This document shows positions 8,787 through 62,304 of a stretch of DNA of 64,000 nt, piece after piece (position 1 is the first letter of the stretch; each line of letters opens with the position of its first letter). The notes under the pieces are model-generated. The model did not search any database, was not told the origin of the DNA, and worked only from the letters and a program-made list of their open reading frames with translations. Position numbers and translations under genes: made by a program. The stretch lies in NCBI RefSeq assembly GCF_024502345.1, contig NZ_JALDNN010000001.1; one strand, written 5' to 3'. This DNA is from Escherichia coli. Lineage in GTDB: Bacteria > Pseudomonadota > Gammaproteobacteria > Enterobacterales > Enterobacteriaceae.

Positions 8787-9818
8787 TTAGTCGCTGGTTG
8801 CATGATGACTGGCCTCCAGCGACGGAGTTGACACTGAATGGCGACGTACCAGCGTCGGACTAAAGACATTAGTGATTTCCGGGAGAGGGCGATTATCCGC
8901 CAGCGCCAAAGCCAGTTCGGCAGCCTGGGTCGCCATCGTCACGATTGGGTAACGCACGGTGGTCAGGCGCGGGCGCACATAGCGTGACACCAGCACATCA
9001 TCAAAGCCAATTAACGAAATTTCGCCCGGTACATCAATACCATTATCATTGAGAACGCCCATCGCACCCGCCGCCATTGAATCGTTATAACAGGCTACCG
9101 CAGTGAAATTTCTTCCTCGTCCCAAAAGCTCGGTCATTGCCTGTTCGCCGCCGCTTTCGTCTGGTTCGCCAAATGTCACCAGCCGATCATTGGCCGGAAT
9201 ACCACTTTCAGCAAGGGCATCGTAATACCCTTGCAGACGATCTTCGGCGTCAGAAATAGAGTGGTTAGAGCACAGATAACCAATGCGGGTATGACCTTGC
9301 TGAATTAAATGACGCGTTGCCAGCCAGGCACCGTAACGATCGTCAAGAGCAATACAACGGTTTTCAAAGCCAGGCAGGATACGGTTGATCAGCACCATAC
9401 CGGGCATTTGTTTCATTAATGAGGCTAAATCGGCATCCGGGATCATTTTGGCATGGACGACCAACGCAGCACAGCGATGGCGGATCAGTTGCTCAATAGC
9501 CTGACGCTCTTTTTGTTCGTTGTGGTAACCGTTGCCAATCAATAAGAAATTACCGGTGTGATAAGCCACCTGTTCGACCGCTTTCACCATTGCACCGAAA
9601 AACGGATCGGAAACATCACCAACGACCAGACCGACCGTTTCAGTGGTCTGCTGCGCCAGCGCACGGGCGTTGGCGTTCGGGTGATAGCTAAGAGACTCCA
9701 TTGCACTATGCACAGCCAGCCGGGACGCTTCGCTGGCTTTGGGTGAATTATTAATGACGCGGGAAACGGTGGCGACTGAAACGCCTGCCAGTCGGGCTAC
9801 ATCCTTTATGGTCGCCAT
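8787..9818 (-). CDS. galR: Galactose repressor (LacI family)
   Basis: 343 aa, MATIKDVARLAGVSVATVSRVIN.. HTH. Confidence 0.95.
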   Translation of the reverse strand: MATIKDVARLAGVSVATVSRVINNSPKASEASRLAVHSAMESLSYHPNANARALAQQTTETVGLVVGDVSDPFFGAMVKAVEQVAYHTGNFLLIGNGYHNEQKERQAIEQLIRHRCAALVVHAKMIPDADLASLMKQMPGMVLINRILPGFENRCIALDDRYGAWLATRHLIQQGHTRIGYLCSNHSISDAEDRLQGYYDALAESGIPANDRLVTFGEPDESGGEQAMTELLGRGRNFTAVACYNDSMAAGAMGVLNDNGIDVPGEISLIGFDDVLVSRYVRPRLTTVRYPIVTMATQAAELALALADNRPLPEITNVFSPTLVRRHSVSTPSLEASHHATSD

Positions 9819-10031
9819 GAAAATACCTTAGTGGGTAAACGCTTACATTCTTTCAGTGTTACGGAAAACGCCCGTTGGTTCAAGGGGCGGCGTGTTTTCA
9901 TCGTGGGAATGTGAGCCAAACGCAAATAAGTAAGACAAAAAAAGAGATTGCAAACCTTTGGTTACACTTTGCGAAACGCTGTTGCGATTGACCGCTGGTG
10001 GCGTTTGGCTTCAGGTTGCTAAAGTGGTGAT

Positions 10032-10114
10032 CCCAGAGGTATTGATAGGTGAAGTCAACTTCGGGTTGAGCACATGAATTACACCAGCCTGCGCAGATGC
10101 GCAGGTTTTTTTTT
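10032..10114 (+). ncRNA. omrB: OmrB small RNA
   Basis: CCCAGAGGTATTGATAGGTGAAGTCAACTTCGGGTTGAGCACATGAATTACACCAGCCTGCGCAGATGCGCAGG followed by a T9 run. Confidence 0.9.
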
Positions 10115-10228
10115 GCCGGTCATCAAACTGTAACAGTAACCGACAATTTACACACCTCGTTGCATTTCCCTTCATTCCTTTGCGTTTTCTCGCTGGCGAA
10201 GAGTCGTCGTGCAGACCACAATCAAGAT

Positions 10229-10316
10229 CCCAGAGGTATTGATTGGTGAGATTATTCGGTACGCTCTTCGTACCCTGTCTCTTGCACCAACCTGCGCGGA
10301 TGCGCAGGTTTTTTTT
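10229..10316 (+). ncRNA. omrA: OmrA small RNA
   Basis: CCCAGAGGTATTGATTGGTGAGATTATTCGGTACGCTCTTCGTACCCTGTCTCTTGCACCAACCTGCGCGGATGCGCAGG followed by a T8 run; shares 5' and 3' ends with OmrB. Confidence 0.9.
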
Positions 10317-10382
10317 CGCACCTAATTTACTGTCGCTCGCGTTCTTTATCTCGTGTAATCTCCCTCCATTCGCTTTTACTGA

Positions 10383-13749
<3,367 letters not shown>

Positions 13750-38735: not shown

Positions 38736-38812
<77 letters not shown>

Positions 38813-38844
38813 TCACCGTACTGCTTTATTTCATTAAATTTGAT

Positions 38845-38921
<77 letters not shown>

Positions 38922-38954
38922 TCACCGTACTGCTTTACTTCATCAAATTTTAAT

Positions 38955-39031
<77 letters not shown>

Positions 39032-40339: not shown

Positions 40340-40570
40340 TGATATTCTGTATGCCGTTTTTACGGATATGACAGGGTGAGGGGTAACCTCACATCCTGAT
40401 TATTGACTAAGTGCGCGTTGTTCATGCCGGATGCGGCGTGAACGCCTTATCCGGCCCACAAATCATGCAAATCCAAAATATTGCAGGAGTTATGTAGGCC
40501 TGATAAGCGTAGCGCATCAGGCATTTATGCGTTTAGGGTGAGGGAAAACCTCACCCTTTTTAATTCTGAG
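40340..40570. repeat. BIME / REP cluster between mltA and tcdA
   Basis: Several imperfect palindromic units (GCCGGATGCGGCGTGAACGCCTTATCCGGCC; AGGCCTGATAAGCGTAGCGCATCAGGC; GGGTGAGGG..CCTCACCC). Confidence 0.75.
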
Positions 40571-43516: not shown

Positions 43517-43722
43517 AAAAAAAAGCACCGCAATTAGGCGGTGCTACATTAATCACTATGGACAGACAGGGTAAATGTACAGGAAGTGAAAAAAGGTAGC
43601 TTTGCTACCATGGTCTGAATCGCAGACCAATTGCAAACACAACAACACAACATCACAACCGTAAGCCAAAAGTTCACCAGAACACGCATTCCGATAAAAC
43701 TTTTCGTTCCGGCTCAGGAAGT
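43517..43722 (-). ncRNA. gcvB: GcvB small RNA
   Basis: Reverse complement begins ACTTCCTGAGCCGGAACGAAAAGTTTTATCGG, contains the G/U-rich region GTTGTGATGTTGTGTTGTTGTGTTTGC, ends in a terminator hairpin plus T8; divergent from gcvA. Confidence 0.9.
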
Positions 43723-61893: not shown

Positions 61894-62259
61894 GTCGACA
61901 GGGAGTCAGACAACGAAGTGAACATCAGGATGATGACACTTCTGCAGGACACACCAGGATGGTGTTTCAGGGAAAGGCTTCTGGATGAAGCGAAGAGGAT
62001 GACGCAGGACGCGTTAAAGGACACCTCCAGGATGGAGAATGAGAACCGGTCAGGATGATTCGGTGGGTCAGGAAGGCCAGGGACACTTCAGGATGAAGTA
62101 TCACATCGGGGTGGTGTGAGCAGGAAGCAATAGTTCAGGATGAACGATTGGCCGCAAGGCCAGAGGAAAAGTTGTCAAGGATGAGCAGGGAGCAACAAAA
62201 GTAGCTGGAATGCTGCGAAACGAACCGGGAGCGCTGTGAATACAGTGCTCCCTTTTTTT
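61894..62259 (+). ncRNA. csrB: CsrB regulatory RNA (CsrA-sequestering)
   Basis: Begins GTCGACAGGGAGTCAGACAACGAAGTGAACATCAGGATGATG; about 18 GGA-containing motifs (CAGGATG, AGGATG, AGGAAG, AGGGA); ends in GC hairpin plus T7. Confidence 0.9.
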
Positions 62260-62304
62260 ATTCCTGCTATCCTTCGCGGCAGTTTTTCTTATTGAGGTTG
62301 CTTT

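Follow-up and report, generated by a model that had tools for sequence, protein, structure and literature searches.

The paralogous small RNA genes omrB and omrA form an intact tandem pair between galR and aas in an Escherichia coli genome

The two short, similar sequences that lie one after the other between galR and aas in the 64-kb window (the whole stretch of E. coli DNA analysed here, 64,000 nucleotides in length) are the small RNA (sRNA) genes omrB and omrA. In an exact-sequence comparison with the K-12 reference (NC_000913.3), window positions 10032-10113 (+) were found to be base-for-base equal to K-12 omrB (b4445, 82 nt) and positions 10229-10316 (+) base-for-base equal to K-12 omrA (b4444, 88 nt); judged by this identity, which is 100% for both copies, the pair is omrB and omrA themselves and not merely like them. 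We regard it as practically certain that the region contains two independently transcribed, paralogous sRNA genes which descend from an ancient tandem duplication of gene and promoter together. No substantial counter-evidence emerged, and all defining features accessible to in silico analysis were present. The pair is already known, is intact here and is nearly universal in E. coli, so that the locus itself is ordinary and without novelty. Identity to the characterised genes, RNA structure, covariation, conservation, promoter hallmarks and seed complementarity were all established in the present analysis; control by OmpR, sigmaS and RstA, dependence on Hfq and RNase E, and the regulation of targets are drawn from the literature.

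Both genes lie on the aas strand, omrB upstream and omrA downstream, within the spacer between the two flanking protein-coding genes, a layout equal to that of K-12. The divergent upstream neighbour is galR (8787-9818, -), which encodes a LacI-family repressor and was recognised by its open reading frame (ORF), its Pfam LacI and Peripla_BP domains and the K-12 annotation. The downstream neighbour is aas (10404-12563, +), which encodes an acyltransferase/acyl-ACP synthetase (ORF; Pfam Acyltransferase and AMP-binding domains; K-12 and PGAP annotation). An initial annotation of the window had placed two sRNAs, OmrB and then OmrA, at 10032-10316 between galR and aas, and its coordinates, identities, gene order and location all proved exact. 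It had also given lengths of 83 and 88 nt: the 88 nt of omrA hold, while omrB is annotated as 82 nt in K-12 and is longer by one T in the window, where the gene with this additional tail T spans 10032-10114 (+). The figure of 83 nt arises because the omrB tail has 9 T in the window (10106-10114) and 8 T in K-12.

Compared with K-12 omrA (formerly rygA/sraE) and omrB (formerly rygB), which define the relevant known system (RF00079), the window is alike in sequence, order, spacing, neighbours, -10 elements and terminators. Only three single-base differences from K-12 are present in the 585-bp galR-aas spacer of the window, namely C/T at 9888, one T more in the tail of omrB, and A/T at 10127, which is -102 relative to omrA. 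The seed regions, the stems and helices and the -10 hexamers are all untouched by these differences, and many other E. coli chromosomes carry exactly the spacer allele of the window (100% identity). The 9-U tail of omrB or the A variant at -102 of the omrA promoter (PomrA) may alter expression slightly.

The initial annotation had proposed an Rfam search as a check. The entire 64-kb window was scanned at the gathering threshold, which for RF00079 (OmrA-B) is 40 bits, and both copies were matched: omrB at 10032-10113 with 86.1 bits (E 2.3e-15) and omrA at 10229-10316 with 96.6 bits (E 6.4e-18), each over model positions 1-87 of 87 and untruncated. When up to 3 mismatches were allowed, the 5' motif CCCAGAGGTATTGATNGGTGA was present in the 64-kb window at 10032 and 10229 (+) only, and 0 matches were obtained in 100 shuffles. 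We considered whether the repeats might be generic intergenic elements, i.e. REP-like palindromes or terminators of galR and aas, and not RNA genes. Each copy indeed ends in a GC-rich palindrome followed by a T-run, which alone is a common intergenic feature. However, such elements would not account for a motif confined to two places in 64 kb, for a covariance-model match that spans the full length and reaches beyond the hairpin, or for a 20-nt 5' end that is invariant across the order; moreover, galR and aas need no terminator here because galR is transcribed away from the spacer and aas lies downstream. The probability of this explanation is negligible, and it is refuted by the full-length Rfam match together with the identity to characterised genes.

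The genes omrB and omrA share their two ends and differ in their centres, as the initial annotation had described; pairwise alignment bears this out, nt 16 of the common 5' end excepted. Both copies start with CCCAGAGGTATTGAT(A/T)GGTGA, a stretch of 21 nt of which 20 are common and nt 16 (A/T) is the single difference, and both end with CACCA(G/A)CCTGCGC(A/G)GATGCGCAGG followed by a T-run of 9 T in omrB and 8 T in omrA. Over the whole alignment, 66 of 92 columns are identical, with near-identical ends and unrelated centres. The 5' target-pairing (seed) regions were assigned to 10032-10052 (+) in OmrB and 10229-10249 (+) in OmrA, the two differing at nt 16 only, on the basis of conservation in homologues, predicted duplexes and published work (PMC2588501). 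At the other end, the intrinsic terminators extend over 10086-10114 (+) in omrB (9-bp stem, 4-nt loop, 9 T) and 10289-10316 (+) in omrA (9-bp stem, 4-nt loop, 8 T). A terminator scan called them at 10086-10107 and 10289-10310, respectively, and the covariation described below concerns the same element. Neither terminator is disrupted, and the earlier statement that both copies are intact stands.

The two RNAs fold more stably than their shuffled counterparts, with z-scores of -2.9 and -2.7. The architecture of RF00079 comprises a closing helix formed by GGUG...CACC, a hairpin in the centre and, with its U-tail, a Rho-independent terminator; it is visible both in the minimum free energy (MFE) folds of the two RNAs and in the structure line of the Rfam match. 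The conserved 5' end, CCCAGAGGUAUUGAU.GGUGA, opens both copies at the first base and stays single-stranded in the consensus structures. When the two RNAs of the window are folded individually, OmrA leaves its 5' 15 nt fully unpaired, and OmrB leaves them so only in part. The central hairpin is visible in single-sequence folds, differs between the paralogues and could not be aligned by MAFFT. RNAalifold, run on a mixed OmrA/OmrB alignment, recovered the GGUG/CACC helix and the terminator and did not recover the central hairpin.

Conservation outside E. coli was assessed in a sample collected with the exact 5' motif pattern, one genome per species, which gave at least 120 stretches. All but one of the matches listed are titled as Enterobacterales genera or Proteobacteria MAGs. 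Of the loci listed, 59 have two copies according to nhmmer and 61 have one, some of these 61 single-copy loci being truncated at the locus ends, and aas and/or galR adjoins in 108 of 120. In a set of 141 distinct Enterobacterales homologues, the 5' end shows invariance or near-invariance at 19 of its 20 leading positions; nt 1-15 (with one sequence departing at nt 8), the GGTG and the CACC are invariant, and the centre varies freely. Pairing of the terminator holds in 100% of cells of the same alignment, with 4 compensatory pairs (54 cells), against 0 compensatory changes in controls with slid partners. The GGUG/CACC helix is uninformative for covariation because it is invariant.

Two observations were made on the loci of this sample. 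Firstly, the one match with a title outside the groups named above, 'Martelella alba' (strain BGMRC 2031; L098), contains an Omr gene of Serratia/Rahnella type, flanked by genes like galR and aas, and its alphaproteobacterial genus label therefore looks inconsistent with its content. Secondly, in Pantoea/Erwinia a distance of about 2 kb, and not of about 200 bp, separates the pair of Omr copies (L011, L024, L032, L038, L056, L060, L069, L084 and L112). The upstream copy is short in these genera (72-81 nt) and is devoid of the GC-rich central hairpin. In the Pantoea stewartii locus (L011, 2747-4879), a gene for a 579-aa PBP3/FtsI-like transpeptidase (Pfam PBP_dimer and Transpeptidase) lies between the Omr copies.

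The comparison with other species also bears on whether the region encodes a small protein, in addition to or instead of the RNAs. Mechanically called ORFs do overlap it, one of 50 aa at 10097-10249 (+) and one of 54 aa at 10011-10175 (-). Against this, the candidate ORFs cross a terminator and promoter DNA, conservation of the spacer between the copies in other species is limited to short promoter blocks, and the spacer length varies in a way that breaks the frame, and neither annotation (K-12, PGAP) nor publications offer peptide support. A small protein is thus very improbable here, and the overlapping ORFs were rejected as candidates in view of the terminator and promoter overlap and of a frame that is not preserved.

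Within E. coli, the genes omrB and omrA are nearly always found: of 5426 complete genomes, 5412 have omrB and 5416 have omrA at 80% or more of the gene's length (about 99.8%). An alternative reading would take the repeats as decayed, non-functional relics (pseudo-sRNAs), or one copy as disabled in the present strain. Natural loss does exist, since about 10-14 of the 5426 complete genomes are without a full-length copy; an 8-bp deletion collapses the palindrome of the omrB terminator in E. coli O157:H7 str. SS17, and a review reports omrB as missing in S. boydii (PMC12692685). Yet both copies in the window are 100% identical to functional K-12 genes, and their promoter hallmarks and terminators are intact. 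We therefore give the relic reading hardly any credence. In SS17 (NZ_CP008805.1; L126, locus about 1558-1570), the omrB terminator is changed from CCTGCGCAGATGCGCAGG to CCTGCGCAGG, which may be a true lesion of the terminator or else an error of assembly at the hairpin, and which illustrates a disrupted copy. Elsewhere in the E. coli collection, a single omr place is plasmid-borne, and two places occur in at least one genome.

We then turn to the promoters of omrB and omrA. Binding of OmpR at both genes has been seen by ChIP (PMC3945435). The same work describes OmpR as having no strong consensus, and for this reason an 'OmpR box' is unprovable by pattern matching alone; a search of PMC5175337 for an OmpR footprint or consensus yielded nothing of use. 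OmpR sites were assessed by phylogenetic footprinting of 44 two-copy loci combined with published mutational data. Upstream of omrB, the footprint delineates a conserved block, CAAACCTTTGGTTACACTTTGCG...GCTGTTGCGATTG (9951-9992, +), which holds the OmpR/RstA box B2 (PMC13425233) and in which the window equals K-12. Inside this block, TTACA (9962-66), TTTGC (9968-72) and TGTTGCGATT (9980-89) are invariant or nearly so in the 44 loci. Positions T-75 (9957) and A-68 (9964) of the omrB promoter (PomrB) are both present in the window, inside CAAACCTTTGGTTACAC; the double substitution T-75C/A-68G is reported to lower activation of PomrB by pOmpR from 81-fold to 3.3-fold and to abolish activation by pRstAB (PMC13425233).

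Upstream of omrA, the same footprint yields the conserved blocks CTGTAACAG, TTACACACCTCGTTGCATT and TTGCGTTT (10128-10187, +), and ACAC-N6-GTTGCA belongs to this conserved sequence. In a pairwise alignment, ACAC-N6-GTTGCA of PomrA is matched with AAAC-N6-GTTACA of PomrB, as is expected if the promoter was duplicated together with the gene. The sequence of both upstream regions is consistent with EnvZ-OmpR-dependent transcription from each gene's own promoter.

The -10 hexamers distinguish the two genes. For omrB it is TAAAGT (10020-10025, +; +1 = 10032), with -12T and of sigma70 type; for omrA it is CACAAT (10217-10222, +; +1 = 10229), in which -12C is a sigmaS specificity determinant. Both were read directly off the sequence, and they agree with a review in which -12C versus -12T is given as the basis of sigmaS dependence in omrA and independence in omrB (PMC12692685). 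A scan of 9800-10420 with the sigma70 consensus returned 0 promoters, an outcome that is expected and uninformative because both promoters are activator-dependent with a poor -35. Among the 44 two-copy loci, the -10 of the upstream copy (omrB position) begins with T in 42. For the downstream copy (omrA position), the first base of the -10 is C or G in all two-copy loci of Enterobacteriaceae type that were sampled, and it is T in Serratia, Rouxiella, Hafnia and Edwardsiella. The mildly new point here is comparative only: within the sample, a non-T start of the downstream -10 occurs in Enterobacteriaceae-type loci alone. The wiring of OmrA to sigmaS might have arisen after the duplication and in Enterobacteriaceae only, a scenario that we advance tentatively and consider rather doubtful; if true, it would make this wiring a datable sub-functionalisation of an sRNA pair.

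Published work on OmrA and OmrB describes transcription activated by OmpR, followed by Hfq- and RNase E-dependent repression through the conserved 5' end, with pairing near the translation start of ompT, cirA, ompR and others; repression of ompR constitutes a feedback loop on EnvZ-OmpR (PMC2588501; PMC5175337; PMC12692685). The initial annotation had characterised the pair as Hfq-dependent, OmpR-regulated repressors of outer-membrane protein mRNAs, and this agrees with the same three sources and would fit the sequence of the window. Duplexes with the leaders of K-12 targets were predicted for nt 1-33 of OmrA and of OmrB as encoded in the window, and shuffled sRNAs served as control. Omr nt 1-9 are predicted to pair with ompT at +12 to +20 (ACUUCUGGG), with ompR at -16 to -9 (CCUUUGGG) and with cirA at -18 to -8 (UACCUCAUGG), and all three positions agree with the published sites (PMC2588501). 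Duplex energies are better than those of shuffled sRNAs for ompT and ompR; for cirA, the energy is not better than that obtained with shuffled seeds (90 and 67 of 300). A terminator hairpin with a tail of at least 8 U, together with this seed complementarity, is consistent with an Hfq-dependent, trans-acting sRNA. In the present strain, sequence identity would imply expression, Hfq binding and regulation as in K-12.

The following mechanism is proposed for the pair. Each of the two sRNA genes ends in an intrinsic terminator of its own and is served by a separate, activator-dependent promoter, and when EnvZ-OmpR is active, OmpR bound upstream would switch on both promoters. For omrA, the -12C would add a dependence on sigmaS; omrB would additionally be able to respond to RstA. 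The resulting RNAs, of about 82 and 88 nt, would bind Hfq, and their unstructured, near-invariant 5' end would pair with short complementary stretches near the translation starts of targets, among which ompT, cirA, fecA, fepA, ompR-envZ, csgD, flhDC and btuB are known. Pairing would lead to a translation block and RNase E-dependent decay, and in the case of ompR, repression would close a negative feedback loop. OmrA and OmrB tie the EnvZ-OmpR envelope-stress system to genes for outer-membrane proteins, iron uptake, motility, biofilm and, more recently, carbon metabolism.

Paralogous Hfq-dependent sRNAs with a common seed and different regulation are also found in Qrr1-4 of Vibrio and PrrF1/PrrF2 of Pseudomonas. 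These groups may be likened to the Omr pair: their paralogues, adjacent or several in number, retain the seed and the terminator and diverge in the promoters or centres. In sequence, regulators and target sets they are unrelated to it, and the likeness is one of analogy only.

The significance of the locus is one of correct annotation only, and no new question is opened by it. In all 62 PGAP-annotated E. coli genomes among the matches listed, the omrA and omrB positions carry no annotation, and among the genomes listed the two names appear only in the K-12 MG1655 reference record. Flagging the pair is useful bookkeeping because PGAP leaves both genes unannotated. Further RNA genes were noted elsewhere in the window. 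CsrB is present at full length at 61903-62262 (+; Rfam RF00018, 380 bits), as is GcvB at 43517-43722 (-; RF00022, 199 bits), and a short match to the ES036 (CssrF) sRNA was found at 40459-40501 (+; RF02751, 46.5 bits, gathering score 37.6). At 38736-39031 (-) there is a tandem of three tRNA-Met (CAT) genes at intervals of about 110 bp, a trio that fits the metZ-metW-metV initiator tRNA cluster.
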